Shown piece after piece: positions 936 through 18,616 of a DNA stretch of 64,000 bases (position 1 is the first letter of the stretch; each line of letters starts with the position of its first letter). Under the pieces are notes generated by a model. It was not told where the DNA came from. It searched no databases and saw nothing but the letters and a program-made list of their open reading frames with translations. The position numbers were made by a program, and so were the translations under genes. This DNA is from Dehalococcoidia bacterium (GTDB lineage Bacteria; Chloroflexota; Dehalococcoidia; Bin125). Location of the stretch: assembly GCA_965263065.1 (NCBI GenBank), contig CBDHGH010000003.1, positions 1,727,153 to 1,791,152 on the forward strand, given 5' to 3'.

Positions 936-987
936 GGTCGGTGTCCTTTCGGGCGGCGCGTTGCGGCGCCGCGTGCGGTGGCGGGCT

Positions 988-2112: not shown

Positions 2113-2138
2113 CGTTGGGGCTCCCGTCGCCGCGGCCG

Positions 2139-2486: not shown

Positions 2487-2528
2487 GGCTCCCTCCTCTT
2501 CCGTTTCGCTTCGGACCCGCGGGCCCGC

Positions 2529-3506: not shown

Positions 3507-3592
3507 GCGCTGCTCCTTATCTCTTGTGGTCTCTCGTCCGCCCGCCCGGCCTCAATGGGCCGGTTCAGATCGCCTGCCTCAGATCGCCTGGC

Positions 3593-4508: not shown

Positions 4509-4527
4509 TTTCCGACTCCTAATCCAG

Positions 4528-4923: not shown

Positions 4924-4932
4924 TGCGATCTC

Positions 4933-5582: not shown

Positions 5583-5670
5583 CGTTGACTTCTCTCTTTC
5601 TGTGTGGCTTCTCTGTGCGTCTTCCCTGGGTTGCTTTGCTGGGCATCCGCCGCGGACGAGGCCGCGCCGG

Positions 5671-6225
5671 TTACGTCTCATAGACCGTGACCCCGAATCG
5701 CTCGGCCGGGCTCGCCGCTTCCTCGTCGACCAGGGCGCGGAACTCGACGGGGGCCAGCGTTTGCGCGTCCTTCTTGTGCGCCATGCCCAGCTCGCCGGCG
5801 AAGTAGCCGCGCGGGATGTACGTCTGCCCGCGCTTGCCGGGCCCCTCCGGCGAGCCCGCGCGGAAGAGCAGCGCCTGCTTCGCGACGGCCGCCCCGCGGT
5901 AGGCGCCCAGCGTCTCCGTGGACGGCGGACCCGCGTCGCGCGACGGCGCGGCGCCCGCCAGCACCGCGCCGAGGCGCGTCAGCGTCGGCTCCGCCAGCGA
6001 CGCCCGCACCCGCAGCGACTCCGCCGTGCGGGTCACGTCCACCGGCCCCGTCTCGTCGTCGACGAACAGCTCCTCGAGCGTCTGCTCGCGCTGCACGCTG
6101 ACGCCGCCGTCGATCGCGCCCAGGTCCGACCAGCCGGCCGCCGTGGGGTCGGCGCCGATGGCGGGCATCGCCGTGCCCGCGTCGTGGAGGTAGAGCCGGC
6201 CCGAGCCGACCAGGAGCTTCACCAT
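5671..6225 (-). CDS. phage major tail protein
   Basis: 184 aa from ATG 6225 (MVKLLVGSGRLYLHDAGTAMPAIGADPTAAGWSDLGAIDGGVSV...). Positioned between the tail terminator and the chaperones. Confidence 0.6.
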   Translation of the reverse strand: MVKLLVGSGRLYLHDAGTAMPAIGADPTAAGWSDLGAIDGGVSVQREQTLEELFVDDETGPVDVTRTAESLRVRASLAEPTLTRLGAVLAGAAPSRDAGPPSTETLGAYRGAAVAKQALLFRAGSPEGPGKRGQTYIPRGYFAGELGMAHKKDAQTLAPVEFRALVDEEAASPAERFGVTVYET

Positions 6226-6235
6226 GGGACTTGCC

Positions 6236-6700
6236 TCACTTGTTGTTCGCGCCGTCGGCCATGTCGGCGGCGGTGTCGGCAGTGTTGTCGGCAGTAGCGA
6301 CGCGCAACGTCGCGCGCACGAACGCCTCGCCGGTGTCGGCGTCGCGCAGCAGCGACGGCCCGCCCAGCTCGACGGCCCAGAGCAGGTGCGCCCCGGCGAC
6401 ATCAAGGCCGCCCACGTTGATGGCCCTGTGCAGGGCGGCCCACAGCGTCGCCGCGCGATGCGGGCCGCCCTGCCCCGGGCCGCCCCAGCAGCGCAGCTCG
6501 ACATCGACGTCGCTGATCGGCAGGTCGGGGTGGGCCCGGCCGCCGCTCAGCCGCGCGCTGATCGACGCCCCCAGCGGCGCCGCCGGCTGCCCGCCGCGCG
6601 GCCCCGGCGGCCGATCGCCGCCGAAGACGCGGCCCGACGTCAGCCGCGCGATCTCGGCGTCGGCGCCCAGGTGGGCCAGCAGCGTCGCCAGTGGATCCAC
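6236..6700 (-). CDS. tail terminator / tail completion protein (DUF3168-like)
   Basis: 154 aa. MDPLATLLAHLGADAEIARLTSGRVFGG... resembles the DUF3168 family. Synteny supports the call. Confidence 0.55.
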   Translation of the reverse strand: MDPLATLLAHLGADAEIARLTSGRVFGGDRPPGPRGGQPAAPLGASISARLSGGRAHPDLPISDVDVELRCWGGPGQGGPHRAATLWAALHRAINVGGLDVAGAHLLWAVELGGPSLLRDADTGEAFVRATLRVATADNTADTAADMADGANNK

Positions 6701-6702
6701 GG

Positions 6703-7032
6703 CTATCCCTCCAGTTCCGCGAGGCGCAGCAGCCGCGCCCGGCGATAGCCCACGCGCACGCGCCCCGTCGGGGCGGACACGCTCTCGACCGCGAACGGCC
6801 CCGCGTCGATGACCGTGCCGTCGGCCTGGCGGATGTCGCTGACGCGGTCGCGCCCGTCCAGCGCGGTCTCCCGCCCGACGAGCAGGCTCGGCGCCTCGGG
6901 CCGGCGCGCGCTGAACCGGCAGCGCACGTCGCCGGCGGCGACGGCGTAGCCCGTCGCCACGGGCTGCCCGTAGGCGTCGGTCCGCGTCCCGCTGGGGCGC
7001 GAGATCGTGCAGCGATGCGGCAGCGCGTGCAT
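6703..7032 (-). CDS. head-tail adaptor / head closure protein
   Basis: 109 aa. HRCTISRPSGTRTDAYGQPV...VRCRF pattern typical of HK97 gp10/SPP1 gp16-like head closure proteins. Synteny supports the call. Confidence 0.55.
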   Translation of the reverse strand: MHALPHRCTISRPSGTRTDAYGQPVATGYAVAAGDVRCRFSARRPEAPSLLVGRETALDGRDRVSDIRQADGTVIDAGPFAVESVSAPTGRVRVGYRRARLLRLAELEG

Positions 7033-7048
7033 GTCCGTCGCTTCTCCT

Positions 7049-7606
7049 CTATTCCAACGTCAGGAAGGGGCGCGCCTCGGCCAGCAGCGCCTCGCGGTGC
7101 GATTCGTAGTCGAGGCTCTCGTAGCGGTAGTCCTCGCCCACCGACTCCGACGCGCGCCCGCTCTGCGCCAGGTCCAGGCGCACCAGCTCCAGCAGCACCC
7201 GCCGGCGCTGCGCCTCGTCGTCGACGGGGTCGTAGCGGACCTCGACGACGGCCGCGAAGCGCGGCCCGCGGTCGGCGCCCAGCGGCGCGCCGCCGAAGTC
7301 GGCGCCCGGCGTCAGCCGTTCGATGCGGCCCTCCTGCGGCCAGACGCGGTAGTCGGTGTCCTGGCGCAGGCCCGGCGTGCCCGGCTCGATGCGTGACCCC
7401 TCGCGCACCTGCGTCACCCGCTCGATGGGGCGGCGCAGGAACACCGAGGGCCAGCCGCCGGCCAGCGTCTCGACGATCGGGCCGTGGTGCGGGCCGGCGC
7501 GCTGCGTCAGCTCCGCGTCCAGGCGGTCGATCACGGTCTGCAAGCCGGCGTCGTCGAGGCCGGTCTCGACGTGCTGGCGGATGTCGGCGGCGGTCAGTAG
7601 GGACAT
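7049..7606 (-). CDS. head-tail connector (gp6-like)
   Basis: 185 aa. N-terminus LLTAADIRQHVETGLDDAGLQTVIDRLDAEL is typical of gp6-like connectors. Synteny supports the call. Confidence 0.5.
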   Translation of the reverse strand: MSLLTAADIRQHVETGLDDAGLQTVIDRLDAELTQRAGPHHGPIVETLAGGWPSVFLRRPIERVTQVREGSRIEPGTPGLRQDTDYRVWPQEGRIERLTPGADFGGAPLGADRGPRFAAVVEVRYDPVDDEAQRRRVLLELVRLDLAQSGRASESVGEDYRYESLDYESHREALLAEARPFLTLE

Positions 7607-7635
7607 TGGCGAGGCTCCCGCCCGTTCCTATGGCG

Positions 7636-8049
7636 CTAGTTGTTGCTCTGGGGCCGACTGCCGGCGCCGGCGCGCACCATCACGGCGCCGTAGTCGACGT
7701 TGCCGGACGCGGTCGTCACCCGCAGGCGCACGTGCGTGAAGCCGCCGGTGATGTCGAGCGCCGAGGCGCGCACCGGGAGCGTCACGATCTCGTCGCCGGC
7801 GCCGTCCGCCTGCTTGCGCTGCGCGATCGCGCTGCCCGCCACGTCCTTCGAGCCCGTGCCGGCGGCGGTCTTGGCCTGCTGCAGCTTGGCGTCGAGCTTG
7901 GCGTTGTTCGCCATCGCGCCGATCATCAGGATGGCGGCCGCCTCGCCGAAGTCGGCCAGCGATACCCAGCCGCCGCTGACCGAGCCGGGCGTGTAGGCGT
8001 CCGGGTCGATCTGCCCGTCGTCGTACTGGAGCGATTCCTGGAGCGTCAT
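7636..8049 (-). CDS. capsid-associated hypothetical protein (decoration-like?)
   Basis: 137-aa ORF immediately downstream of the major capsid gene. Confidence 0.45.
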   Translation of the reverse strand: MTLQESLQYDDGQIDPDAYTPGSVSGGWVSLADFGEAAAILMIGAMANNAKLDAKLQQAKTAAGTGSKDVAGSAIAQRKQADGAGDEIVTLPVRASALDITGGFTHVRLRVTTASGNVDYGAVMVRAGAGSRPQSNN

Positions 8050-8065
8050 TGGGGGTCCTTTCCCC

Positions 8066-8119
8066 GCCCCCGCCCGCGCGGGCGGGGGCCGTCGTGGCGC
8101 CGCGCGGTGGCGGCGCGGC
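8066..8119 (-). terminator. two GC-rich hairpins downstream of the major capsid gene
   Basis: Perfect 24-nt palindrome GCCCCCGCCCGCGCGGGCGGGGGC (8066-8089) plus a 7-bp stem at 8099-8119. No clear U-tract. Confidence 0.3.
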
Positions 8120-8160
8120 TGTGCCGGTGTTGCAGTGCTGGTCTCGCTGGGGCGCCGTCG

Positions 8161-9450
8161 CTAGGCGCTGATCTGCTGCAGGCGGAAGGCGCGCGGCTGC
8201 GTCACCCGACCGCCGACCCGCTGCCGCCCGACGAAGCCGATCTGGTTCTTCTCGGCCAGCTGCTGGTCGCCGTCGATGCGCTGCACGGCGAAGCCCACCC
8301 GGTCGACCACGACGTAGCGGCTGAAGTCGCCGAACGCGATCGGCGTCGCCGCCGCCGCCACCGCCGGCATGAACTCCGAGCTCACCACCGCCCGTCCCAG
8401 CAGCGTCTCCGGCGTCGCCGCGAAGCCGCCCACCCAGAGGTACTGGTTGTTGCCGTCCTTGAGCTTGCGGATCGCGTCCTCGGTGGCGCTGTTGGTCACG
8501 AAGACGGCCGCGTCGCGGTACTGCGCCGGCAGCCCGTAGAACAGGTCGAGCAGCCCGTCGGCCGTCACCTTCGAGGCGTGCCCGCTCTTGACCGTCGGCA
8601 CGCCCGCCGTGTTGAGCAGCCCCAGCGGCTTGCCGACGCCGTCGCCGCTCAGGAACGCCTCCTCGTCGGACAGCCGCACCTCGTCGCCGAACAGCCCGGC
8701 CAGGATGTCGGTGAAGGGGACGGCGCTGTCCTCGACGAGGTTGCGGCTGGCCTTGGTCGTCAGCATCGCCGTGTGCACGGGGATGCGGATCGCGCCGAAG
8801 GTCGGCTCCGACTCCGCCGCGCCCTCGGCCGGCTGCTCATCGACCCAGGTGCGGCGCACGGCGCTGGCGTGGATGTCGTTGCCGCCCTCGATCGTGGGCC
8901 ACTCGACCGTGTCCCGCGACGTGGGGATCGCCGTCACGTGCTGGCGCAGGCCCGCCCGCGCGCCGGCCGCCCGCAGGATCTGCGCCTGCCAATCGACCGG
9001 CACCAGGTGGCCGCCCTCGCTGTCGGTGCCGGCCGTGAGCGCCTTCACGTAGGCGCCGCCCAGGGCCAGCACGGCGCGCTCGCCGTGGTGCACGTAGGTC
9101 TCGAACGCCTTGCGGTACAGCGCCGGTCGCTGCCGCTCGCCGGTCTCGCCACTGCCGACGCCCATGCCGCTGCCAACCGCCGCGGCGTTCGGGTCGCGCA
9201 GTCGCTGCGTCGCGCCGCGCTCGCCGTCGTGCCAGGCCTGTTCCAACTCCGAGACCGCGGCGTGGCGCTCCCGCTCGGCCAGGGCCGACTCGTAGGCCTG
9301 CCATTCCTCCCGGCCGCGCGCGATCAGGTCGTCGACCCGGGCGCCGACGTCGGCCGGCAGCTCCTCGCCGCCGTCGTGTTGTTCCAGCAGGGCGCGCGCT
9401 TCGGTCATCGTCTGGCGCGCGCGCTCGCGCAGGTCGTTACTGGTGGGCAT
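8161..9450 (-). CDS. HK97-family phage major capsid protein
   Basis: 429 aa. An N-terminal coiled-coil delta-like region is followed by ...ALTAGTDSEGGHLVPVDWQAQILR..., typical of the HK97 fold family. Sits after the protease. Confidence 0.85.
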   Translation of the reverse strand: MPTSNDLRERARQTMTEARALLEQHDGGEELPADVGARVDDLIARGREEWQAYESALAERERHAAVSELEQAWHDGERGATQRLRDPNAAAVGSGMGVGSGETGERQRPALYRKAFETYVHHGERAVLALGGAYVKALTAGTDSEGGHLVPVDWQAQILRAAGARAGLRQHVTAIPTSRDTVEWPTIEGGNDIHASAVRRTWVDEQPAEGAAESEPTFGAIRIPVHTAMLTTKASRNLVEDSAVPFTDILAGLFGDEVRLSDEEAFLSGDGVGKPLGLLNTAGVPTVKSGHASKVTADGLLDLFYGLPAQYRDAAVFVTNSATEDAIRKLKDGNNQYLWVGGFAATPETLLGRAVVSSEFMPAVAAAATPIAFGDFSRYVVVDRVGFAVQRIDGDQQLAEKNQIGFVGRQRVGGRVTQPRAFRLQQISA

Positions 9451-9501
9451 TGGGACTCCTTGACTGTGCTCTGCGATCGCTCGGTGGTTGGATGGGGTCG
9501 C

Positions 9502-10011
9502 TCAGGCGGGCGCCGGCGGCAGTGCGACATCGAGCCGCCGGCGCAGCGCGACGGCCGGCGCCCGCGGCCGCGCCGCCGGTCGCTCCAGCGGGCGCCCATC
9601 GAGCGCCGTCACACGCGCGTTCGGGTTGGCGGCCAGCGTCACCAGGCTGATCTCGACGAGGTCCAGCGTCTCGATGCGGCGCAGCGTGCGCCCGTCGCGA
9701 TGCTCGAAGCGCACCCGCCGCGGCACGAAGCCGATGCTGCACTCGCGCAGCGACCCGCGCTCGATCAGCGCCAGCGCGTCGGCCGCCCGCCGCGTGGGCG
9801 CGAGCGCCGCCTCGAACCACAGCCCGCGCCCGTCCTCGCGGACCGCCACGACGTGGCCCAGCGGCTCCGCCATCGCGTGCTGCCAGAGCAGCGGCAGGCG
9901 GTGCCCGCGGGCGCGCAGCGTGGCGCGGAAGGCGCCCGGGTCGAGGGCGTCGGCCTGCGCGTCGGGCGCGCCGAAGACGGCGGCGTAGCCGCTGATCCGG
10001 CGGCCGCTCAC
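9502..10011 (-). CDS. HK97-family prohead protease
   Basis: GTG start in a GTGA overlap with the portal stop. VSGRRISGYAAVFGAPDAQADALDPGAFRATL...LLWQH...ECSIGF is typical of the S78/U35 family. Confidence 0.8.
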   Translation of the reverse strand: MSGRRISGYAAVFGAPDAQADALDPGAFRATLRARGHRLPLLWQHAMAEPLGHVVAVREDGRGLWFEAALAPTRRAADALALIERGSLRECSIGFVPRRVRFEHRDGRTLRRIETLDLVEISLVTLAANPNARVTALDGRPLERPAARPRAPAVALRRRLDVALPPAPA

Positions 10012-11324
10012 GACCCCGCCTCCAGCGCGGGCCGCGCGTCCAGCGTCGCGACCGCGCCGCCGTCGGGCCCCGCCCACGACGCCAGCCGCGCCCCGCCCGT
10101 CGCCGCCCCGCCCACGAAGCGGTCGCCGTCGTCGATCGGCTCCAGGCCCAGCCGGCGGCGTGCGTCGTTGACGGTCAGCGCCCCGGCCCGCAGGCCGGCC
10201 AGCGCCGACCGCTCGATGCTCTCGCGCGATTCGCGCAGCGCCGCCACCTGGCTGAAGTCGAAGGCCACGCGCAGCCCCTCGGGCCGCGGGCCGTACTCGG
10301 GCGTCAGCTCGGCGTTGAACTTCTCGGCCAAGCGGCGGTAGAGGGAGAGCATCGTGTTCTCCCAGAAGAAGCGCCGCGCCTCGGCCATGTTGCTGAACGT
10401 CGATCGATCGAGCCCCACCTTGACGCCCACCAGCACCGGCGGCACGCGGAAGGCGGCGCAGATGCGCGCCTCGGTCTGCGCGCGCAGCTCCGGGAAGGCC
10501 ATCTCCTCCTGGGTCAGGCCGATGCGCTGGAATTCGGCGTCGGCGTCGAGCACGCCCACCTGGAAGCGGCCCAAGAGGCCGCGGAAGCGCTCCGACCAGC
10601 GCCGCCCGATGCGGCTCGCCTCGGGCTCGCCGCCGCGCAGCGCGCGCTTGAGCTTGATGATCCCGAAGGGCACGGCGGCGTTGCGAAAGAACGCTTCGAC
10701 GAAGCGCGAGGCTTCGCTGTCGGTGTCGATCTGGCGCGCGGCGGCCCGCACCGGCGAGAGCCCCCAGAGGTCGTTGGCCGGGTCGGGCAGCCGCAGGTGG
10801 ATCACGCTCTCGGCGGCCAGCCGCGTCTCGCGGTCGCCCACGCGGTGCACGTATCCCGCCACCAGGCGTCGCTCCCCCGCCACGATCTGGACGCGGTCGG
10901 GGCGCAGCTTCCACAGCGCCTCGATGCCGCCGCCGGTCCCGCCCTCGGGCCCGCGCTGCTTCAACAGGAAGGCGTTGCCGTAGACCAGCAGGTCGGTCAG
11001 CAGCGCCTCGATCAGCTCGAAGCCCGACTGCTCGGGGTTGGGACGCCCCAGCAGCCGCTGCAGGCCGTGCCCCGGCTGCGGCCGTCCCTCCCCGTCCTCG
11101 ACGCGCAGATCGACCTCCGCCGCCGTCGAGGCGATCTCCCGCACGCAGGCGTAGACCACCTCGTTGCCGCGGAAGCCCTCGCTGGCCAGCCGGTCCAGGG
11201 GCGTCGGCGCGGGCTGCTCGAGCCCGGCCTGCCAGGACGGCACGAGCGCCAGGGCGCCCTTGAGGCCTAAGTCGTGCAATGCCTGCGTAGTCAGGGCGAA
11301 GGAACCGGCGTCGGGGAGGGGCAT
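10008..11324 (-). CDS. HK97-family phage portal protein
   Basis: 438-aa ORF with portal-like sequence (…NEVVYACVREIASTAAEVDLRV…). Followed directly by the protease and capsid genes. Confidence 0.85.
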   Translation of the reverse strand: MPLPDAGSFALTTQALHDLGLKGALALVPSWQAGLEQPAPTPLDRLASEGFRGNEVVYACVREIASTAAEVDLRVEDGEGRPQPGHGLQRLLGRPNPEQSGFELIEALLTDLLVYGNAFLLKQRGPEGGTGGGIEALWKLRPDRVQIVAGERRLVAGYVHRVGDRETRLAAESVIHLRLPDPANDLWGLSPVRAAARQIDTDSEASRFVEAFFRNAAVPFGIIKLKRALRGGEPEASRIGRRWSERFRGLLGRFQVGVLDADAEFQRIGLTQEEMAFPELRAQTEARICAAFRVPPVLVGVKVGLDRSTFSNMAEARRFFWENTMLSLYRRLAEKFNAELTPEYGPRPEGLRVAFDFSQVAALRESRESIERSALAGLRAGALTVNDARRRLGLEPIDDGDRFVGGAATGGARLASWAGPDGGAVATLDARPALEAGS

Positions 11325-11390
11325 CGTGCTCTCGGCGGCGCCGGCCCCTGCCGTCGCCCGGAGCGGGTGCGTCCCGCCGATCGTCCAAGT

Positions 11391-11427
11391 GAGATCAGAA
11401 TACGCGAAGCGCGGATATCTGTCTGCT
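11391..11427 (-). promoter_or_regulatory. promoter-like motif upstream of portal, related to the one upstream of terS
   Basis: Minus strand reads AGCAGACAGATATCCGCGCTTCGCGTATTCTGATCTC. It shares ACAGATA..CGCG..TCGCGT..GATC with 18505-18541. Possible CAGACA-N17-TATTCT promoter. Confidence 0.3.
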
Positions 11428-11544
11428 ATGCGGGGAACAGAGGGAAGCGGATCCCGCCCGGCGGTCGCTCAGGCCCCGGCGCGGTCGCCCGGCCTCCACC
11501 GCGACACGATCATCGACTGGTGATCGCCGCGCTCACCCACGCAA

Positions 11545-11602
11545 TTGAAACGCGAGTTTCAACTTCTCGAGAAGTTGAAACAAATCCGCTGATTTGTTTC
11601 AC
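11545..11602. repeat. array of four TTGAAAC/GTTTCAA half-sites including a perfect 26-nt palindrome
   Basis: TTGAAAC at 11545-11551, GTTTCAA at 11556-11562, TTGAAAC at 11575-11581, GTTTCAC at 11596-11602. GTTTCAACTTCTCGAGAAGTTGAAAC (11556-11581) is self-complementary. AT-rich patch in GC-rich DNA. Confidence 0.6.
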
Positions 11603-12036
11603 TCCCGACCGCGCGCCCCCTCCGCCCCCTGCTGCCCCGCCCGCGACTGCAGCGCCCGCAGCGGGACCGTCGCCGCCAGCACGCCGTCCACCCGCACCTC
11701 GAACGCGTACTGGCCCGGCCGCTTCAGCGCCAGACCGTTGATCTGGATGGGGTGCGTGAACTGATGCGGCTGCCCCGGCTCCATCCCCGGCGGCACGACC
11801 ACCCGCGCGTCGATCTTGAACAGCCGCGCGCCGTCCGCGTCGATGAAGCGCACGTCGAGGTCGTGCGCGCGATTGCCGTCCGCCGCCGACGCCTCCAGCC
11901 GCAGCACCAGCGTCATGCTGGGGTGCGTCGTGGGGAACTTCGGCGCCTGAATCGCGTCGAAGATGCCCAGCAGGTTGAGCTTGCCGTCCCGCGACGTGTT
12001 GGCCGCGTCGGCCAGCAGTGCCAAACTGACGTCCAT
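11599..12036 (-). CDS. hypothetical beta-rich protein (possibly DUF6941-like; family name unverified)
   Basis: 145 aa from ATG 12036: MDVSLALLADAANTSRDGKLNLLGIFDAIQAPKFPTTHPSMTLVLRLEA... The longer upstream ORF extension is Arg/Gly-rich noise. Confidence 0.5.
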   Translation of the reverse strand: MDVSLALLADAANTSRDGKLNLLGIFDAIQAPKFPTTHPSMTLVLRLEASAADGNRAHDLDVRFIDADGARLFKIDARVVVPPGMEPGQPHQFTHPIQINGLALKRPGQYAFEVRVDGVLAATVPLRALQSRAGQQGAEGARGRE

Positions 12037-12087
12037 GCCGGCAGTGTCGCACACGGGACGCCGCCGCCGACCCGAGAGGCGTTGCCC

Positions 12088-12495
12088 ATGCCCGACCCAG
12101 GACCGCTCGCCGAATCGACCGTGATGCCCTTCGTCACCTGCAGCGACCCCGAGCGCGCGAAAGCGTTCTACGGCACCACGCTGGGGCTGCCCCTGCTCTC
12201 GGAGGACGGCTTCGGGCTCGTCTTCGCGACCGGCGGCGTGGTGCTCCGCGTCGCCATCACCGCCGACGTGCAGCCGGCCCCCTACACGGTGCTCGGCTGG
12301 AACGTGCCCGACATCGCCGCCAGCCTCGCCGCGCTCAGCGCCGCCGGCGTCGAGATGCAGCGCTTCCCCGGCATGGATCAGGACGCCGACGGCATCTGGA
12401 CCGTGCCCGGCGGCGCCCGCGTCGCCTGGTTCCGCGACCCCGACGACAACCTGCTCTCGGTGACGCAGGCCCCGCCGTCGGACGGCTCCGCTTAG
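12088..12495 (+). CDS. VOC/glyoxalase-family protein
   Basis: 135 aa. FVTCSDPERAKAFYGTTLGLPLL...VAWFRDPDDNLLSV is typical of the glyoxalase/bleomycin-resistance fold. Confidence 0.7.
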   Translation: MPDPGPLAESTVMPFVTCSDPERAKAFYGTTLGLPLLSEDGFGLVFATGGVVLRVAITADVQPAPYTVLGWNVPDIAASLAALSAAGVEMQRFPGMDQDADGIWTVPGGARVAWFRDPDDNLLSVTQAPPSDGSA

Positions 12496-12567
12496 GCCGG
12501 GATCCATGGCCGCCCCCTGGTAGCCTGCTCGCGGGAGGACCGGAATCGCGAGAAGTGGAGCCAGGCG

Positions 12568-13251
12568 ATGGCGGGCAGACAGGACGTTGGGATGCACGAT
12601 GCTGCCCTGCAGTCCGGTTCGCTGCTGGAGGAAGGACTGAGGCGCCTAGAGGATGACTACCGGGGAGAACCAGAGACGCGGGACAGCATCCTCCAAGATC
12701 TGTCTTTGGGGCTTGAAGTCCTGCTGAAGCTAACCCTTCGGCTGTTTGGCGAAAGCGAAGAAAGCATCGGCCGCGATCACAAGATTCCCGCCTTGCTCGA
12801 CAAACTGCTGCCACTAGTGCCGACCCACTCGACGCCAGCAGGCCGTCGCGAGTTCCTTGAGGGCGATCCGCGGTTCCGGGAGTTGCTGGAGATGCTAGGC
12901 AGGCATGGCGGAGCGGGTAAGTACGGTGCTCTTGACGCGGCTTTGGGCAGGAACACGACCGGCGCGTCGGATCAGTCGGCCTCCGAGATGTGGAAAAAGA
13001 TGAAATTGGACCTGCTGGACGACGACTGGTTCAATCTGATGAAGTCCGATCCCGGGCACTTCTGCCAACAGTACTACCCGCACGTCTACCGGGTGGTCGG
13101 CACATCGCTGGCCTACGGTATCCACTCGCTGTGGTGGTTATGGGCGCACGGTCCTCAAGCCGAGCAAGGTAGGCGGTGGTATGTCGCCTTGACAGGCGAG
13201 CCAGGGCGTCGCGTGAACGGACTCGCGATGAAGTTCGGGGAGATGAACTAG
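12568..13251 (+). CDS. hypothetical protein with an HEPN-like N-terminal helical region
   Basis: 227-aa ORF in a lower-GC stretch. LSLGLEVLLKLTLRLFGESEESIGRDHKIPALLDKLL resembles the LE-x-LK...H-x-x-x-LL helices of HEPN domains (by eye). Confidence 0.45.
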   Translation: MAGRQDVGMHDAALQSGSLLEEGLRRLEDDYRGEPETRDSILQDLSLGLEVLLKLTLRLFGESEESIGRDHKIPALLDKLLPLVPTHSTPAGRREFLEGDPRFRELLEMLGRHGGAGKYGALDAALGRNTTGASDQSASEMWKKMKLDLLDDDWFNLMKSDPGHFCQQYYPHVYRVVGTSLAYGIHSLWWLWAHGPQAEQGRRWYVALTGEPGRRVNGLAMKFGEMN

Positions 13252-13324
13252 CTGCTCCGCGTCGCGCGGCTGGCGGAGCTGTCGGGGTAGGGTGGGGGGC
13301 GGCTGGGTGGAGACCAGCCGCGTG

Positions 13325-13368
13325 CAAGCAACTGCTCCCTTCAGTCATGACGAGGGGGCAGTTGCTTG
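13325..13368. terminator. 15-bp hairpin between convergent genes
   Basis: CAAGCAACTGCTCCC (13325-13339) pairs with GGGGGCAGTTGCTTG (13354-13368) with one mismatch and a 14-nt loop. No U-tract. Confidence 0.4.
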
Positions 13369-13393
13369 AATCACGTGATTCGAGGTTGACGTC

Positions 13394-13513
13394 CTACTTC
13401 TTCTTCCGCGGGGAGACAGTCTGCTTGTAGGTCGTCTTGGGATTGCGAGCCATCTGACGGTTCGAAACGAATCGACCATTGATCGCCGACTTGTTGACGG
13501 ATCGTTTGCCCAT
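13394..13513 (-). CDS. 39-aa basic microprotein
   Basis: Manual translation: MGKRSVNKSAINGRFVSNRQMARNPKTTYKQTVSPRKKK. AAAGGGGGG RBS upstream. Immediately downstream of the DUF3892 gene. Below the ORF-track size cutoff. Confidence 0.4.
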   Translation of the reverse strand: MGKRSVNKSAINGRFVSNRQMARNPKTTYKQTVSPRKKK

Positions 13514-13564
13514 GTTCTTGCGCCCCCCTTTCGGCCGTCGGTGCTGCCGGCCGAGCGATCCGGG

Positions 13565-13819
13565 TCAGCAGTTTGGAAGGTTGTCGAGATTGTCGGAACA
13601 GGAGGAGTTCGGATCGGTTCGGAGGTACTTGCCCGTGCGTCCGTGCACCACCTGCACAGTGGCGCGACGGCTGTACCCATCCTGCACGTAGTACTTGTGC
13701 ACCCCGGCCTCAATCTCGATGATCGCTAGTGCCTTGTTGGTCCGTCCCCACGACCCGCAGAGCGCGGTGATGTCGCGGTCGCTGTCCTTGCCCGTTCGGG
13801 TTACTCGTCGGTCTGCCAT
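13565..13819 (-). CDS. DUF3892 domain protein
   Basis: 84 aa from ATG 13819 with a GGAGGG RBS. ...DRDITALCGSWGRTNKALAIIEIEAGVHKYYVQDG...GKYLRTDPNSSCSDNLDNLPNC matches my recollection of the DUF3892 pattern. Confidence 0.65.
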   Translation of the reverse strand: MADRRVTRTGKDSDRDITALCGSWGRTNKALAIIEIEAGVHKYYVQDGYSRRATVQVVHGRTGKYLRTDPNSSCSDNLDNLPNC

Positions 13820-13829
13820 GATGCCCTCC

Positions 13830-13891
13830 CGCGCAATAGGATTGTGGTGTTGCGCAATCGCACCGTACACTGGCGTTGTGTGATTGCGCAA
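13830..13891 (-). promoter_or_regulatory. operator-like TTGCGCAA palindromes and promoter in front of the DUF3892 gene
   Basis: Perfect TTGCGCAA at 13850-13857 and 13884-13891, and a degenerate CGCGCAAT at 13830-13837. The minus strand reads TTGCGC-N18-TACGGT (-10 at 13862-13867). Confidence 0.55.
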
Positions 13892-13894
13892 GCG

Positions 13895-14533
13895 TCACAA
13901 CCCAGGAGGGGGATCCTCTGTGTCGCAGCTGTCAATCAAGCCCAAGTCCTGTAGGCAGATTCGCAACGTCGTGCGCGAGACCCCCCACCTCTTAGCGGTG
14001 CCGCGGAAGTCCCTCCGCACCTCGTCGATGCTCGCGCGCACCAAGTCTGCGGGCAGCAGCAGGTGCGCCGCGAAGTTGTTCGCGTTCACCTCCCGGATCC
14101 GTTCAACTTCCGACAGCCCTGGGGATTCACGGTGATAGCAGTATTGCTCGCCGGTCTTCGAATCGAGATCGAAGCTCAACTGTCTAGGATCGTCGGCGTC
14201 GTAGATCCAATGCCCCAACTCGTGGGCGAGCGTGAAGCGCTCTGGTCCGACGCATTGCTCGAACAGGGCCTCGTGCCTCGAGTTGAGCATGATTCGCCGC
14301 TCGCGCGGCGCCAGCGCTCCGAGGATCATGGCTTCGGGAGGCTCCGGGATATCACCCCAGAGGATCTGCAGTTTGTGGGTCTGTTCGACGATCAACTCGA
14401 TCGGCACCGGGAGCGTCACCGGCGTGCCGTGAATTGATGCGTGTCGAGCGAGGACTTCGCTTGCTTTCCTCGCGTGGAGGTGATCGGGCCGGGGAAAGGT
14501 TCGCTGGGGCATCAGCGCTTGCCGGCCTTCCAT
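13895..14533 (-). CDS. ImmA/IrrE-family metallopeptidase
   Basis: HELGH motif (FTLAHELGHWIY) plus NNFAAHLLLP. An alternative start at 14512 would give a TGATG overlap with the XRE stop. Confidence 0.75.
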   Translation of the reverse strand: MEGRQALMPQRTFPRPDHLHARKASEVLARHASIHGTPVTLPVPIELIVEQTHKLQILWGDIPEPPEAMILGALAPRERRIMLNSRHEALFEQCVGPERFTLAHELGHWIYDADDPRQLSFDLDSKTGEQYCYHRESPGLSEVERIREVNANNFAAHLLLPADLVRASIDEVRRDFRGTAKRWGVSRTTLRICLQDLGLIDSCDTEDPPPGL

Positions 14534-14811
14534 TTGCGTAGGTACTCAAGGGAGCCCGTGGGATCCGCGGCGAACTGCTCAATTAAGTCTGGCGGCATGC
14601 GTCTCGCCGCCAGGAGGAGTTCGTCGAAGTCGCAGTCGAAGAGATCTGCGATCTTCCGCAGAAGATCATCGCTCGGGTTCTCGCGGCCAGCTTCGATCTT
14701 CGAGATGTGAGGCACGCCGACGCCAACCGCGTCGGCGAGCTCACGCTGAGTCATGGCTCGCGTCAGTCGTTCGCGTTTTATCCGCTGCCCGACCGGCTCA
14801 ATGCCGCTCAC
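14512..14811 (-). CDS. XRE-family HTH transcriptional regulator (ImmR-like)
   Basis: VGQRIKRERLTRAMTQRELADAVGVGVPHISKIEAGRENPS. I place the start at GTG 14811, because the ORF-track extension to 14895 contains the TTGCGCAA site. Confidence 0.7.
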   Translation of the reverse strand: MSGIEPVGQRIKRERLTRAMTQRELADAVGVGVPHISKIEAGRENPSDDLLRKIADLFDCDFDELLLAARRMPPDLIEQFAADPTGSLEYLRKWKAGKR

Positions 14812-14838
14812 ATGAGTATTGTCGCCGTTCTTGTGGAC

Positions 14839-14846
14839 TTGCGCAA
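14839..14846 (-). promoter_or_regulatory. TTGCGCAA palindrome upstream of the XRE gene (putative autoregulatory operator/-35)
   Basis: Perfect 8-mer, about 27 nt upstream of GTG 14811. The minus strand reads TTGCGC-N17-GACAAT followed by 6 nt and then the GTG. Confidence 0.5.
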
Positions 14847-14946
14847 CTGCTGACCGGCCTTCCCGGTCGAACGCAGTTACTGCTTGGTTCCACATCTCCC
14901 CGCTCGTGGGGGATCCACGGTCGCCCCCCTACGACCCCCCACGCCA

Positions 14947-14975
14947 CCGCAGCACGGGACGACGCGCCGCCGCCA
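14947..14975. repeat. 29-nt repeat, copy A
   Basis: CCGCAGCACGGGACGACGCGCCGCCGCCA recurs at 15608-15636 with 2 mismatches. Confidence 0.6.
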
Positions 14976-15053
14976 GCGCCTCGTGTTGCCCGAAGAGGCC
15001 GCCTCAAGTACGAATGACCCGCCTGAAGGCAGCCAGCGAGGGGGCTCTCGGGG

Positions 15054-15338
15054 ATGGACCTGCGCTTCTACGTCGACCCCGAGACGAGAGACCCTCACAT
15101 CCACGGCCACGGAGTCGAAGATTACGAAGTCGAGGACGTGCTACGCTCGCCTCGCGAGGACAGGTCTGGACGAGATGACTCGCGCGTTGCCATCGGTCAA
15201 ACGCAAGAGGGGCGGTACCTCCGCGTGATCTACAAGCGTGATCCGGGACCGGACAGGTTCTTCGTGATCACCGCGTACGAGTTGACCGGCAAGCCCCTGA
15301 CTGCCTACCGGCGGCGGATGAGAAGGAGAGGCGCATGA
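15054..15338 (+). CDS. small toxin-fold protein (DUF4258/BrnT-like by eye)
   Basis: 94 aa. HIHGHGVEDYEVEDVLRSP...GRYLRVIYKRDPGPDRFFVITAYEL. ATGA overlap with the next gene. Confidence 0.5.
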   Translation: MDLRFYVDPETRDPHIHGHGVEDYEVEDVLRSPREDRSGRDDSRVAIGQTQEGRYLRVIYKRDPGPDRFFVITAYELTGKPLTAYRRRMRRRGA

Positions 15339-15502
15339 GCGAAGCAGTCAACCGCTTCCCGCCAGGCTGGGACGAAGCGCGCGTGCGCGACCTCATCGAG
15401 CACTACGAGTCGCAGACGGAGGACGAGGCGGTGGCGGAGGACGAGGCGGCGTTCGACGACAAGTCGCAGACGGTGATGCTGATCCCCAACGAGCTGGTCC
15501 CC
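15335..15502 (+). repeat. 168-nt direct repeat, copy 1
   Basis: About 94% identical by eye to 16127-16294 (roughly 10-11 mismatches). Both copies start exactly at the ATG. Confidence 0.85.
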
Positions 15503-15565
15503 GCCGTGCGGGCGCTCCTCCCGGCGTCCCCCGGCGCGACACCGGCGATGGCCGACCGGCCGTAG
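15335..15565 (+). CDS. acidic antitoxin-like protein (copy 1)
   Basis: 76 aa. NRFPPGWDEARVRDLIEHYESQTEDEAVAEDEAAFDDKSQTVMLIPNELVPAVRALL. Translationally coupled to the upstream toxin-like gene. Confidence 0.5.
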   Translation: MSEAVNRFPPGWDEARVRDLIEHYESQTEDEAVAEDEAAFDDKSQTVMLIPNELVPAVRALLPASPGATPAMADRP

Positions 15566-15607
15566 CAACTCGCCGGCGAGCACCCCCGACGTCCCCCCGA
15601 CCGCCCC

Positions 15608-15636
15608 CCGCAGCACCCGACGACGCGCCGCCGCCA
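15608..15636. repeat. 29-nt repeat, copy B
   Basis: CCGCAGCACCCGACGACGCGCCGCCGCCA. In addition, GATGGGGCGCTCCAGACGCCGCC at 15653-15675 recurs at 16298-16321. Confidence 0.6.
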
Positions 15637-15767
15637 TCCCATCCAGCCGGCCGATGGGGCGCTCCAGACGCCGCCGGTGCCGGCCGTACCCCGATCGCCC
15701 AGCCGCAGCGGCCCCCGATGCGGCATCGATCAACACGCCGTGCTTGAGGGGACGCTAGAATGACCTC

Positions 15768-16127
15768 ATGACGACGCCACAGATCGAGACCTCCCGCGAT
15801 TCGGCCGCCGACCTGCTGGAGCAGGCGCGGACCGAGCTCGCCGGCGGCGGCGTGCGCCAGGCGTCGGAGAAGGGCTGGGGGGCGGCGGCGCAGTCGGTCA
15901 AGGCCATCGCGGAGGCCCGCGACTGGGAGCATCGCAACCATGCGGCCCTGTTCCGGGCCGCCTCTCAACTCGCGGCGGAAGCCGGCGATGACGATATCCA
16001 TCGCTGGTTTCACACTGCCAGCAGCCTGCACGTCAACTTCTACGAGGATTGGCTGGACGCTGCCGCCGTGCGGGTGGGTCTGCAGGACGTCGAGCGGCTG
16101 GTGCGTCGCCTGTCGCTGATTGCGTGA
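15768..16127 (+). CDS. PaREP1-like (HEPN-superfamily-like) protein, paralog 1
   Basis: 119 aa. QASEKGWGAAAQSVKAIAEARDWEHRNHAALF...ASSLHVNFYED. Two paralogs at 31709 and 43494. Confidence 0.6.
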   Translation: MTTPQIETSRDSAADLLEQARTELAGGGVRQASEKGWGAAAQSVKAIAEARDWEHRNHAALFRAASQLAAEAGDDDIHRWFHTASSLHVNFYEDWLDAAAVRVGLQDVERLVRRLSLIA

Positions 16128-16294
16128 TGAGCGACACCGTCAACCGCTTCCCGCCCGGCTGGGACGAAGCGCGGGTGCGCGACCTCATCGAGCACTACGA
16201 GTCGCAGACGGAGGACGAGGCGGTGGCGGAGGACGAGGCGGCGTTCGAGGACACGTCGCAGACGGTGATGCTGATCCCCAATGAGCTGGTTCCC
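16127..16294 (+). repeat. 168-nt direct repeat, copy 2
   Basis: See copy 1. After 16294 the sequence rejoins copy-1 sequence about 150 nt further on, which indicates an internal deletion. Confidence 0.85.
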
Positions 16295-16378
16295 GGCGAT
16301 GGGGGCGCTCCAGACGCCGCCCCCTACGCCGGGCTCCAGAGGAAGCCGCAGCCGCCCAGCCGGCCGTCGCAGCGATAG
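16127..16378 (+). CDS. acidic antitoxin-like protein (copy 2, C-terminus replaced)
   Basis: TGATG overlap with the PaREP1-like stop. The first 56 aa are near-identical to copy 1. The tail GDGGAPDAAPYAGLQRKPQPPSRPSQR looks non-native and overlaps a minus-strand ORF. Confidence 0.4.
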   Translation: MSDTVNRFPPGWDEARVRDLIEHYESQTEDEAVAEDEAAFEDTSQTVMLIPNELVPGDGGAPDAAPYAGLQRKPQPPSRPSQR

Positions 16379-16485
16379 ACCGCGTTGAACGACCCGTAGT
16401 CCGGCCGGTCGAGCAGCAGCCCGCTCTGCAGGTTGCAGCGCGGGCAGACCGGCGTTGCGGTCATCGAGGGGTGCGTGGTGGTCAT
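16324..16485 (-). CDS. 53-aa zinc-ribbon microprotein downstream of terL
   Basis: Manual translation: MTTTHPSMTATPVCPRCNLQSGLLLDRPDYGSFNAVYRCDGRLGGCGFLWSPA. CPRC...C-x5-C pattern. GGAG sits 8 nt upstream. High GC3. Confidence 0.45.
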   Translation of the reverse strand: MTTTHPSMTATPVCPRCNLQSGLLLDRPDYGSFNAVYRCDGRLGGCGFLWSPA

Positions 16486-16541
16486 GTGGTGGCTCCGTTC
16501 TCAGCAGCAAGGGCCCGATATCGCGGGCGCGGCATCGTGGG

Positions 16542-17984
16542 CTAGTAGATCCCCGGGCTGCGCGCGCCGTCTTCGTAGGCGGCCCAGGCCAGGGCCAGCG
16601 AGTCGGCGAGGTCGGGGCTGACGCCGCGGCCGCCCCCCGCGTCGCCGTCGCGCGCGCGTTTCCGCACCCGGCGGCGACCGTCGCTGCCCAGCGAGTAGCG
16701 CACGCCGGCGAGCTGGCCCGCCAGTGCGTCGAACGTGGGCAGGCCGGGCGCGATGCGCAGATCTCCCTGCTCGATCGCGATCGCCAGGCGGCTGTACATC
16801 TCGGCGGCGCGGTTCACGTAGTGCGCCGCGTCCTCGGCGGTGGCGCCGAAGTTCACCGCCAGCGGCGCGATGGCCTGCTCGCACAGCCGGTCCGTGACGC
16901 CGCCGCCCAGGCCCGTGTCGTCGACCGCGACGGCCATGCCCGGCCGCGCCCGCAGCGCCTCGACGACCCTGCCGGCGGTCTCCATCAGCGACAGCCCGCG
17001 CCGCTCTTCCTGGCGCACCAGGCGCCCGTCCTCGATCCAGCTGAAGGCCGTGGCGTCGTCGCCGAAGCGCGCCACGTCGACGCCCAGCGCCGCCCGCGCC
17101 GGCGACGCCGGCGCGGCGGCGGCGGGCGCGATGTCCGCGGCCGCGGCGGCGTCGAGCGCGCTGCGCGAGAACAGGCTGTCGGCCGCTTGGCGCGGGAACT
17201 CCGCCAGCACCCGCGACCGATAGAGGTTGCTGCCCTCGCCCCACAGCGCCCGGCGCTGGCGCACCCACTCGGGCGAGACCAGGTAGTCGCGCTGCGGCTG
17301 GCCGGGCTGGAAGTTGGGCGTGTCGAAGGCCGAGATGCGGAAGCTGCGATAGGCCTCCGCCTGGCTGTGGAAGGCGTCGAAGAAGGGGCCGTCGGGCTTG
17401 GTCGGGTTGCCGATCATGAGCAGTCGCGTGCGGCCCGACGCCAGCACACCCTCGATGCCCGCGAAGACGTTGGGCGGCACCGCGCCCGGCTCGTCGACGA
17501 CGACCAGCACGTGCGGCGCGTGGAAGCCCTGGAAGCGCTCGGCGTTGTCGGTGCTCAGGCCCAGGCCGTACCAGCGCCCGCCCAGGCGCAATTCGGTGTC
17601 GAGCAGCGACCCGCCCAGCGGGTGCCGCGCCCCCGCGACCAGCCCCTGAATCGAGCGCCAGAGGACGTAGCGGACCTGCCGGAACGTCGGCGCCGTGGTC
17701 AGCACGACGGCGCCCGGGCGGGTGTAGAGGAACCAGCACACGCAGACGGCCGCGACCATCGTCTTGCCCGCCGCGTGGCACGACCGCACGGCGACGCGGG
17801 CGTGGTCGCGCACCGCCCGCGCGATCTCGCGCTGCTGCGCCCACAGGTCGACGTCCAGCACCTCGCGGGCGAAGAGCGCCGGGTCGCGGCCCCAGCGCCG
17901 CGCGTGGGCCTGCATCGCCGCGTCCAGGCCCGGCGGCGCCGGCGGGGCGCTACGCCTCGGTCGGGGACGCGTCGTCACGGTCAT
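16542..17984 (-). CDS. phage terminase large subunit
   Basis: 480 aa. Walker A-like SCHAAGKT and Walker B-like HVLVVVDEPG. Nuclease-domain-length C-terminus. Confidence 0.85.
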   Translation of the reverse strand: MTVTTRPRPRRSAPPAPPGLDAAMQAHARRWGRDPALFAREVLDVDLWAQQREIARAVRDHARVAVRSCHAAGKTMVAAVCVCWFLYTRPGAVVLTTAPTFRQVRYVLWRSIQGLVAGARHPLGGSLLDTELRLGGRWYGLGLSTDNAERFQGFHAPHVLVVVDEPGAVPPNVFAGIEGVLASGRTRLLMIGNPTKPDGPFFDAFHSQAEAYRSFRISAFDTPNFQPGQPQRDYLVSPEWVRQRRALWGEGSNLYRSRVLAEFPRQAADSLFSRSALDAAAAADIAPAAAAPASPARAALGVDVARFGDDATAFSWIEDGRLVRQEERRGLSLMETAGRVVEALRARPGMAVAVDDTGLGGGVTDRLCEQAIAPLAVNFGATAEDAAHYVNRAAEMYSRLAIAIEQGDLRIAPGLPTFDALAGQLAGVRYSLGSDGRRRVRKRARDGDAGGGRGVSPDLADSLALAWAAYEDGARSPGIY

Positions 17985-18504
17985 CCGCCCAGCCCTCGCC
18001 GTCGCCGTCGCCGTCCGCGTTGGGCTCCGCCGGGCCCGCCTCCGTCTCCGCCTCGACCAGCGCCTCCGGCTCGTCCAGGTAGTCCGTGCCCAGCTCGGCG
18101 AAGATGTCGCGCACCGTCAGCTGCCCCTGCTCGACGTCCTTCTCGTCGGCGTTGCGCAGCGATTCCCCCGTGCGGATGGTCTCCAGCAGCGCCCGCGCCG
18201 CCGCCGGCACGGACTTGTCGTCGCCCTCCTCCATCCGCCGCTCGATCACCTTCCACAGCGACGCTTGGGTCTGCGCACAGAGGTCGAAGGTGCGCGCCCG
18301 CTCTCTCGCCCGCTCCCGGCGGAACTGGTCCGTCTGCAGCGCCCGCACCCGCTCCAGGTCGTCCTTCACGCCCCGCCGCGAGCGACCCATGGACTCCGCG
18401 ATCTCGTCCACCGTGTATCCGCGCCGCGCGCGCTCCTCGACCAGCGTCAGCCGCTCCTTGAGTTTTCCCGTCCAGTCTCGTTGTAGAACATGTGTTCGTG
18501 TCAT
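17950..18504 (-). CDS. terminase small subunit-like HTH protein
   Basis: 184 aa from ATG 18504. TLVEERARRGYTVDEIAESMGRSRRGVKDDLER HTH and an acidic C-terminus. Overlaps the terL start by 35 nt. Confidence 0.5.
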   Translation of the reverse strand: MTRTHVLQRDWTGKLKERLTLVEERARRGYTVDEIAESMGRSRRGVKDDLERVRALQTDQFRRERARERARTFDLCAQTQASLWKVIERRMEEGDDKSVPAAARALLETIRTGESLRNADEKDVEQGQLTVRDIFAELGTDYLDEPEALVEAETEAGPAEPNADGDGDGEGWADDRDDASPTEA

Positions 18505-18511
18505 GCAGCGG

Positions 18512-18541
18512 ATCGTAGCACGCGATTCGCGTATCTGTGAA
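18512..18541 (-). promoter_or_regulatory. promoter-like TTCACA-N18-TACGAT, 7 nt upstream of the terS ATG (possible leaderless mRNA)
   Basis: The minus strand reads TTCACAGATACGCGAATCGCGTGCTACGATCCGCTGC-ATG and contains the palindrome ACGCGAATCGCGT. Confidence 0.3.
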
Positions 18542-18616
18542 GTGCGATCAGGCACCCACACGCGACGGGAGGCCGCCCCATGGCAGCCCCCGACACACTC
18601 GACGGGGTGGGGGAGG

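Follow-up and report, generated by a model that had tools for sequence, protein, structure and literature searches.

A putative mobile XRE/M78-peptidase switch with recurrent palindromic operators and a DUF3892-micropeptide payload among phage genes of a Dehalococcoidia bacterium

Within a 64,000-nucleotide (nt) stretch of a Dehalococcoidia bacterium genome (contig CBDHGH010000003.1, positions 1,727,153 to 1,791,152; hereafter the window), we examined a four-gene cassette of 1.6 kb (13308-14903, minus strand) in which copies of the 8-nt palindrome TTGCGCAA accompany genes for an XRE-family repressor, an M78 zinc metallopeptidase (ImmA), a DUF3892 protein and a basic micropeptide of 39 amino acids (aa). 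The cassette is probably a self-contained mobile switch of the CapH/CapP (ImmR/ImmA, DdrO/IrrE) type, in which the XRE protein would act on three operators and the peptidase would trigger release of the two-gene payload. Pfam confirmed the XRE, ImmA and DUF3892 gene calls of a preliminary description of this DNA, and comparison with related loci leaves the wiring interpretation well supported. The cassette comprises the following features, listed in the direction of transcription:

14830..14846, minus strand: operator O_X, TTGCGCAAGTCCACAAG; overlaps the -35 hexamer TTGCGC (14841-14846) of the candidate XRE promoter; 25.8 bits; a homologous site lies upstream of XRE in 13 relatives
14818..14823, minus strand: -10 hexamer GACAAT of the candidate XRE-ImmA promoter; spaced 17 nt from TTGCGC and 6 nt from the GTG at 14811
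14512..14811, minus strand: XRE-family (CapH/ImmR/DdrO-like) repressor, 99 aa, GTG start; Pfam HTH_3 5e-16; PADLOC capH 5e-7
13895..14512, minus strand: ImmA/IrrE/CapP-like M78 zinc metallopeptidase, 205 aa; Pfam Peptidase_M78 9e-11; PADLOC capP 3e-18
13875..13891, minus strand: operator O1, TTGCGCAATCACACAAC; overlaps the candidate DUF3892 -35 (TTGCGC, 13886-13891); begins 3 nt past the ImmA stop; 27.7 bits; invariant columns in the 16-locus alignment
13862..13867, minus strand: -10 hexamer TACGGT of the candidate DUF3892-micropeptide promoter; 18 nt after TTGCGC
13841..13857, minus strand: operator O2, TTGCGCAACACCACAAT; begins 4 nt past the -10; 24.9 bits; conserved in relatives
13829-13836, minus strand: degenerate fourth copy of the palindrome, plus strand CCGCGCAA, minus strand TTGCGCGG; two mismatches; adjoins the ribosome-binding site
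13565..13819, minus strand: DUF3892 protein, 84 aa, ATG preceded by GGAGGG, ending in the family signature GKYLRTDPNSSCSDNLDNLPNC; Pfam PF13031 1.3e-8; phrog_8224
13394..13513, minus strand: basic micropeptide, 39 aa, core VNKSAxxGRFVSxRxxxxxPKTTYKQTV; isoelectric point 12; 12 K+R; no D/E
13325..13368, minus strand: terminator-like hairpin closing the cassette; inverted repeat with arms of 16 base pairs (bp); RNA fold -42 kcal/mol, z = -4.1

Operators and promoters

The clustering of the palindromes is real and far beyond chance. Exact copies of TTGCGCAA occur in the window at 13850-13857, 13884-13891 and 14839-14846 only, in agreement with the three perfect copies within about 1 kb that had been reported earlier. 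The accompanying estimate of less than one copy per window also proved sound, with shuffled sequences giving a mean of 0.39 and three copies being reached in 1 of 100 dinucleotide shuffles. Copies with one mismatch showed no enrichment (15 versus 16.3 expected). An excess was likewise found in related loci (L001-L022), where 161.8 kb contained 33 exact copies (shuffles averaged 1.9 and reached 6 at most), and 31 of the 33 fell inside two homologous promoter windows.

The sites themselves are longer than the 8-mer first proposed, which is only the core of an operator of 16-17 bp. Thirty-four sites from other genomes yield the consensus TTGCGCAA-N3-C(A/G)CAA(C/T), that is TTGCGCAA-N3-CRCAAY, an imperfect inverted repeat TTGCG-N6-CRCAA of which TTGCGCAA is the best-conserved half; in one relative (L016) the operator is a perfect 16-bp palindrome, TTGCGCAATTGCGCAA. 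A weight matrix was built from these 34 sites, with the window sites left out, and gave the three window sites scores of 24.9-27.7 bits; the next best site in the 64 kb reached 15.4, and three sites of this kind did not arise in any of 20 shuffles. Since no operator-like site lies elsewhere in the 64 kb, the regulon within the window would be the cassette itself. A degenerate fourth copy had been placed at 13830-13837; it does exist, but one base away at 13829-13836, and the stretch (TTGCGCGG) is not conserved across the 16-locus alignment. Missing conservation in relatives ruled this copy out as an operator, and it is probably non-functional.

Relatives were collected by a genome scan for DUF3892 that kept one genome per species and returned 23 loci, 22 of them informative, from metagenome-assembled genomes of Dehalococcoidia, Caldilineaceae, Acidimicrobiia, Thermoanaerobaculia and Balneola. 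XRE and ImmA orthologs sit directly upstream of DUF3892 on the same strand in 15 of the 22, spanning several phyla, and all of these loci carry TTGCGCAA or a one-mismatch variant at about -72 and about -38 relative to the DUF3892 start and at about -1025, just upstream of XRE. Zero TTGCGCAA sites were found in the seven loci that have DUF3892 without XRE/ImmA. The XRE-ImmA-DUF3892 trio with equivalent palindromes therefore recurs beyond the window, as the preliminary description had proposed to check; the linkage of DUF3892 with XRE/ImmA elsewhere takes the form of one 1.6-kb unit, most copies of which include the micropeptide gene. When the 75-90 nt gap between ImmA and DUF3892 was aligned (16 loci, 51% mean identity), nearly all invariant columns fell in the two boxes and one in the -10 hexamer. 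More distant cassettes with a diverged XRE (L029, L026, L048) have different palindromes at the same location. These patterns support the palindromes being cis-elements tied to the cassette's own XRE. Two other origins were discarded: strict co-occurrence with the cassette XRE ruled out chance or a host-factor site, and a restriction-site palindrome would give no reason for a fixed position relative to the -10.

Both promoter geometries of the preliminary description, TTGCGC-N17-GACAAT upstream of XRE and TTGCGC-N18-TACGGT in a 75-nt gap, read from the sequence as it had given them. The gap extends from the ImmA stop (13895-13897) to the DUF3892 ATG at 13819, and its second palindrome, O2, begins 4 nt after the -10 and so would cover the expected transcription start. 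The equivalent XRE -10 in relatives reads GACAAT, GACACT or CATAAT, with unchanged spacing and 5-7 nt ahead of an ATG or GTG; with the window -10 only 6 nt before the GTG, the XRE mRNA would be leaderless. Of the 16 aligned loci, 15 (all but L010) have a TAnnnT hexamer at about this position upstream of DUF3892. We infer the two promoters from this conserved hexamer and its spacing across relatives.

A composite operator-plus-promoter pattern was also scanned in viral contigs, where it returned no high-GC cassette and matched a single, unrelated low-GC phage family. These IMG/VR contigs (L041-L047, 35-44% GC; e.g., L043 3289-4506) carry TTGCGCAA-N3-CRCAAY...TAnnnT...TTGCGCA in a gap that has a cro-like gene on one side and an XRE plus HEXXH (ImmA-like) pair on the other. 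Their XRE and ImmA proteins have no detectable similarity to those of the window, which suggests convergence or a very old operator type.

Regulatory proteins and the proposed circuit

The stop codon of the XRE gene overlaps the ImmA ATG by one base. Matches of the XRE protein in the PDB include DdrO, ImmR (helix-turn-helix, HTH, domain), ClgR and SinR. Its orthologs share the recognition helix VPHISKIEAGRE, conservation that is consistent with the conserved operator, and a tail DELLLAARRMPxDL...LEFLR. By analogy with CapH and DdrO, this C-terminal segment is likely the dimerisation and cleavage region, with its conserved LLLAARR as the candidate cleavage site.

The peptidase consists of a peptidase domain and a helical HTH-like linker, after which it ends without a GAF domain, and its orthologs are likewise all about 205 aa and end after the linker helices. 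The closest solved sequence is CapP (PDB 7T5T, 1.5e-4). HELGH and the Glu of REVNAN, the third zinc ligand, align to CapP H96/E97/H100/E129, and a Cys (C125, counted from the ATG at 14512) aligns with CapP Cys113, the 'cysteine switch' residue. The HEXXH, the glutamate and the aligned Cys are invariant in 16 and in 61 orthologs; the invariant Cys suggests a peptidase that is autoinhibited or sensitive to redox state or zinc. An AlphaFold2 (AF2) model had a mean predicted local distance difference test score (pLDDT) of 82.8, with values below 50 in the Cys-bearing insertion loop at residues 110-130. Foldseek placed the Mycobacterium tuberculosis XRE-M78 regulator 6CZ6 first and also returned CapP (4e-6) and IrrE (4e-5). 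The ImmR/ImmA-type circuit of the preliminary description thus remains the natural reading, the peptidase resembling CapP/IrrE and keeping its zinc site; that it cleaves the repressor, and on what signal, is what we infer beyond that.

In the proposed circuit, the 99-aa XRE, probably as a dimer, would bind TTGCGCAA-N3-CRCAAY at three sites. At the -35 of its own leaderless promoter it would autoregulate the translationally coupled XRE-peptidase operon, while at O1 (-35) and O2 (transcription start) it would keep the DUF3892 and 39-aa peptide genes off. A stress signal would activate the M78 peptidase, leading to cleavage of the XRE C-terminal region, and this would free both promoters for a burst of DUF3892 and micropeptide. 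Known relatives sense single-stranded DNA (ssDNA) from DNA damage or phage replication. Judging by its genomic company, the payload is most likely a prophage- or island-borne stress or anti-phage module, and DUF3892 and the very basic peptide would act on nucleic acid or the translation apparatus.

The nearest precedent is found in CapH/CapP systems, in which CapH binds the promoter and represses the CBASS (cyclic-oligonucleotide-based antiphage signalling system) operon, ssDNA-activated CapP cleaves CapH, and the operon is switched on by DNA damage (Lau et al. 2022, bioRxiv 10.1101/2022.04.27.489752). The same study lists CapH/CapP-like pairs beside DUF3892 and DUF2188 operons, so the earlier remark that no system of this architecture had been described does not stand. 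As cited by Lau et al. 2022, Burroughs & Aravind 2020 associated HTH proteins with metallopeptidases and predicted a role in defence. One example given by Lau et al. 2022, a Sulfitobacter/Pseudosulfitobacter plasmid (L048) carrying the WP_037275356.1 cited there, encodes a divergent HTH and ImmA/IrrE (256 aa) pair followed by two DUF3892 genes, the first 55% identical to that of the window.

Published CapH/CapP systems (Lau et al. 2022; Calloji et al. 2026) resemble the window in pairing an XRE repressor with an M78 peptidase and in having palindromic sites in the promoter of the regulated operon. CapP also shares the HEXXH and the glutamate, and its cysteine-switch Cys has an aligned counterpart in the window peptidase; the switch loop, present in about a third of CapPs, is an insertion in the peptidase domain, and the window Cys likewise lies in an insertion loop after the HEXXH. 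Peptidases of the published systems are 256-291 aa long, compared with 205 aa in the window, and the C-terminal GAF domain, which in CapP forms the ssDNA groove together with the peptidase domain, is missing from the window protein. The gap palindrome of L048 differs from the window operator, and where L048 has two DUF3892 paralogs the second payload gene of the window encodes the 39-aa basic peptide, which has no DUF3892 match. The three operators, which would include autoregulation of a leaderless XRE, also set the window apart from the published systems.

Other M78-based switches share different parts of the layout. ImmR/ImmA of the Bacillus subtilis element ICEBs1, with related immunity modules of phages and integrative elements, has, like the window, a short GAF-less M78 anti-repressor just downstream of XRE in one autoregulated operon on a mobile element. 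However, ImmR/ImmA govern genes of the element that carries them (integrase, excision and transfer), whereas the window operators would serve only the cassette, with DUF3892 and the micropeptide as output; there is no linked integrase, and another element carries the cassette as cargo. In DdrO/IrrE (PprI), which mediates the response of Deinococcus to radiation and desiccation, an M78 peptidase cleaves the dimerisation region of an XRE protein, as would happen in the proposed circuit, and among the structural matches IrrE ranks second. This enzyme has a GAF domain, holds ssDNA in the peptidase-GAF groove and has no cysteine switch, in contrast to the GAF-less window peptidase with its aligned Cys. 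IrrE/DdrO govern a chromosomal regulon of repair genes via a different motif, whereas the window system is a single mobile cassette.

The window architecture is a compact variant of the CapH/CapP-DUF3892 association already published, with co-directional genes and a GAF-less peptidase. New here are the operator definition, the compact same-strand, leaderless and autoregulated layout, and a widespread unannotated micropeptide family near M78/XRE switches and defence genes. CapH/CapP-type switches are emerging as a general on-switch for immune or stress genes of bacteria and mobile elements upon DNA damage or phage replication, and their DUF3892 branch has so far been listed only, never dissected. 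The cassette offers a defined operator (TTGCGCAA-N3-CRCAAY) with its promoter layout, a small two-gene payload, and a minimal GAF-less, Cys-bearing peptidase with which to ask how activation proceeds without the known ssDNA groove.

The divergent HTH-regulator and two-DUF3892 layout of the published system is also carried by GenBank PP438431 ('Synechococcus phage Ssp-JY41', 20 kb; L050), which is 93% identical over 3.8 kb to the L048 plasmid NZ_CP054605. The shared stretch is annotated with a MobQ relaxase and a type IV coupling protein in the plasmid and as hypothetical in the phage record. This entry may be a plasmid filed as a phage.

DUF3892 and the micropeptide family

The DUF3892 protein scored 35.6 bits, above the Pfam gathering threshold of 22.3, in an alignment that spans positions 2-71 of the 71-position profile, and has 212 close homologs at 64-87% identity. 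Its AF2 model reached a pLDDT of 89.8. A profile search of the PDB returned only a spurious de novo protein. A later preprint of the Aravind group assigns DUF3892 a fold of three-stranded meander plus helix, likens it to the double-stranded RNA-binding domain (dsRBD) and hibernation promoting factor (HPF), and reports fusions to Min-Wnt effectors; Foldseek did not reproduce the published dsRBD/HPF resemblance.

Two loci retain the payload with damaged regulators. In L010 (3491-4425) the cassette is 5'-truncated, with no XRE and with ImmA beginning at residue 68, its N-terminal third gone; both payload operators, DUF3892 and the micropeptide are intact. In L030 (2719-4111) XRE and ImmA are split over several frames, through real decay or long-read errors, and the payload is intact.

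The micropeptide gene follows DUF3892 in 10 of the 15 loci with XRE, ImmA and DUF3892 (tblastn), as well as in the truncated L010 and the fragment L023, and in L029 it also comes after DUF3892, there beside divergent regulators. Its core, VNKSAxxGRFVSx7PKTTYKQ, hardly varies between loci that are only 64-73% identical in DNA. A profile search led by a 43-aa ortholog collected 829 homologs at E<=0.01, none of them annotated. Substitutions concentrate at third codon positions (1031 versus 478 and 343 at the others), a test that is partly circular because the loci were chosen by peptide pattern. At E<=10, the sole Pfam listing was DNA_mis_repair (E 0.026), well below that family's cut-off. Small genes of this type are routinely missed by gene callers and defence-system catalogues.

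The family extends beyond the DUF3892 cassettes. In L026-28, L032 and L076, which have no DUF3892, the micropeptide lies directly opposite fused HTH-M78 proteins. When the three longest open reading frames (ORFs) near the micropeptide were searched with Pfam at each of 38 distinct metagenomic loci, 19 or more of the loci proved to have a Peptidase_M78 protein within about 2 kb; limiting the search to three ORFs makes this count a minimum. We tentatively consider the family a recurrent, hitherto unrecognised partner of XRE/M78 (CapH/CapP-, RmrA-type) switches across phyla, possibly a shared nucleic-acid or ribosome effector or a third regulatory component (e.g., a feedback modulator of the peptidase), which together with DUF3892 might form a new damage- or phage-induced effector pair of prophages and defence islands; this idea is possible but falls well short of being favoured.

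Other settings of the micropeptide were also observed. It follows (at about 3001) an operon of Multi_ubiq, DUF6791-ThiF(E1) and DUF6527 in L067, L084, L087 and L098, and lies between a Zn-dependent phospholipase C-like gene and ThsB_TIR/TIR_2 genes in L062 and L072. Its company of ubiquitin-like and TIR genes makes this a small gene that recurs in defence-type neighbourhoods. Upstream of the multi-ubiquitin gene, where a CapH/CapP pair was sought, L087 has no ORF of >=50 aa in 630 nt and L098 none of >=40 aa in 212 nt. Several homologs (P0151, P0175, P0213, P0216 and L033 4001-4207) are 67-69 aa long with two tandem micropeptide motifs; the L033 gene lies beside those for ParA and a type ISP restriction enzyme and has no M78 gene in its vicinity.

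Mobility of the cassette and alternative explanations

The cassette is of foreign origin. It shares 83% DNA identity with L001 over 13308-14903, a homology that runs through the hairpin and ends there, and the flanks are unrelated. GC content at third codon positions (GC3) is 0.70-0.77 in the cassette genes, compared with about 0.95 in the flanking phage genes (terminase, portal, capsid), indicating a recent insert of foreign cargo in the structural operon. It sits between the terminase large subunit (TerL) and portal genes, inside a 5-kb island that also holds a glyoxalase-like gene, a 227-aa ORF, and DUF4258 and PaREP1 genes. Elsewhere, the cassette is flanked by GmrSD, HicAB and a methyltransferase-HNH gene (L024) or belongs to an element that encodes integrase, TrwC relaxase and a NACHT protein (L025). 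On this comparative evidence, it is independent, horizontally mobile cargo rather than the phage's own circuitry. The position within a phage structural operon given by the preliminary description is accurate, although the cassette stands outside the phage's circuitry. No integrase, excisionase, cro or replication gene was found linked to the window cassette, and with no further operator in 64 kb this agrees with the earlier view that its output is not a mobile-element excision module.

Several observations weigh against a CapH/CapP-type switch with this payload, or limit it. The regulators of published CapH/CapP systems, as of L048, L029 and L038, are divergent (on the opposite strand), whereas all four window genes lie co-directionally on the minus strand. 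Because the peptidase has no GAF domain, CapP/IrrE-style ssDNA sensing in a peptidase-GAF groove is not simply transferable. A strict scan for the Escherichia coli consensus sigma-70 detected neither promoter, and the only terminator-like site it returned was irrelevant; because no terminator separates ImmA from DUF3892, transcription from the XRE promoter could run on into the payload genes and express them too. Close DUF3892 relatives occur without any regulator, one of them beside a phage lysis module, and together with the payloads kept in L010 and L030 they argue weakly against a strongly toxic payload, such as one for lethal abortive infection. The DUF3892 model found nothing better than E = 0.2 by Foldseek in the PDB and BFVD, and the micropeptide had no match in Pfam at cut-off, PHROG, PADLOC, NCBIfam (E<=0.01) or the PDB (E<=10). 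With no structural neighbour for one protein and no family for the other, the function of the payload is a guess.

The cassette might instead be a toxin-antitoxin (TA) system like RosmerTA (RmrT/RmrA), with DUF3892 or the micropeptide as a toxin neutralised mainly at the protein level by XRE/M78 as a split RmrA, and with the palindromes serving TA autoregulation. RosmerTA, an anti-phage type of TA system that is phage-borne in some cases, sets a precedent of an HTH plus ImmA-protease antitoxin with diverse toxins; like the window cassette, it combines such domains with a small partner, and deletion of rmrA appears toxic. XRE and ImmA both match many PADLOC RmrA models, the micropeptide is directly opposite fused HTH-M78 genes in L026-28, L032 and L076, and the island has other TA-like genes (DUF4258 and PaREP1). 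Yet RmrA is a single fused polypeptide, whereas the window regulators are two ORFs, and fused HTH-M78 forms occur only at the more distant micropeptide loci. The peptidase matches capP (3e-18) better than RmrA (9e-9), neither payload protein resembles a known toxin, and L010 and L030 retain the payload despite truncated or broken regulators. Moreover, two operators bracket a separate payload promoter, which argues for repression of the payload and not only autoregulation. We regard a RosmerTA-like system as unlikely.

A miniature DdrO/IrrE-like damage or stress regulon, whose payload would be protective (nucleic-acid or ribosome protection, or hibernation under DNA damage, desiccation or oxidative stress) rather than anti-phage, draws on the high rank of IrrE in the structural comparison and on the presence of DdrO in the list of XRE matches. 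The activity of IrrE is influenced by ssDNA and by zinc or redox state, and the invariant Cys could be a redox sensor; survival of the payload without regulators in some genomes, the extremely basic peptide and the described HPF/dsRBD-like fold of DUF3892 would also fit. However, that likeness was not recovered by Foldseek, the operator would control the cassette alone, and the cassette is patchy, mobile and placed among defence islands, unlike a core-genome regulon, so this explanation seems quite improbable. We give very little credence to XRE/ImmA being the prophage's own lysogeny switch (cf. ImmR/ImmA of ICEBs1 and phi105-like phages) with DUF3892 and the peptide as early genes or passengers. 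ImmR/ImmA-type pairs do control prophages and integrative and conjugative elements, the cassette does lie inside a prophage between terminase and portal, and the unrelated low-GC phages carry TTGCGCAA-type arrays in a true cro/XRE+ImmA immunity region. Nevertheless, the lack of further operator-like sites in 64 kb, the missing linkage to integrase, excisionase, cro or replication genes and the GC3 signature of a recent insert in the structural operon all speak against it, and the same 1.6-kb cassette occurs with unrelated flanks in non-phage chromosomal islands and in the relaxase-bearing element. The mobile CapH/CapP-type switch remains our preferred reading.

The surroundings of the cassette in the window include further features. 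The left 18.5 kb (1-18561) form a prophage or phage-like cluster with a tail gene (Sipho_Gp37, 991-2112), capsid, portal, TerL and a gene like the terminase small subunit (TerS-like, 17953-18561). Host genes, thioredoxin-like and luciferase-like monooxygenase genes among them, begin at 18617, directly after the TerS-like gene; no lysogeny or replication module was found on the TerS side of the phage cluster within the window. A direct repeat of 172 nt (15335-15506 and 16127-16298, 94% identity) accounts for a duplicated small acidic ORF (76 and about 84 aa), whose copies follow the DUF4258 gene (15054-15338) and the PaREP1 gene (15768-16127), respectively. These look like two TA-like pairs with one shared partner type. 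Two island ORFs, at 12568-13251 (plus strand, 227 aa) and 11599-12117 (minus strand, about 172 aa trimmed), had no match in Pfam, PHROGs, NCBIfam or PADLOC, and the 227-aa ORF has a GC3 of 0.74, low like that of the cassette.

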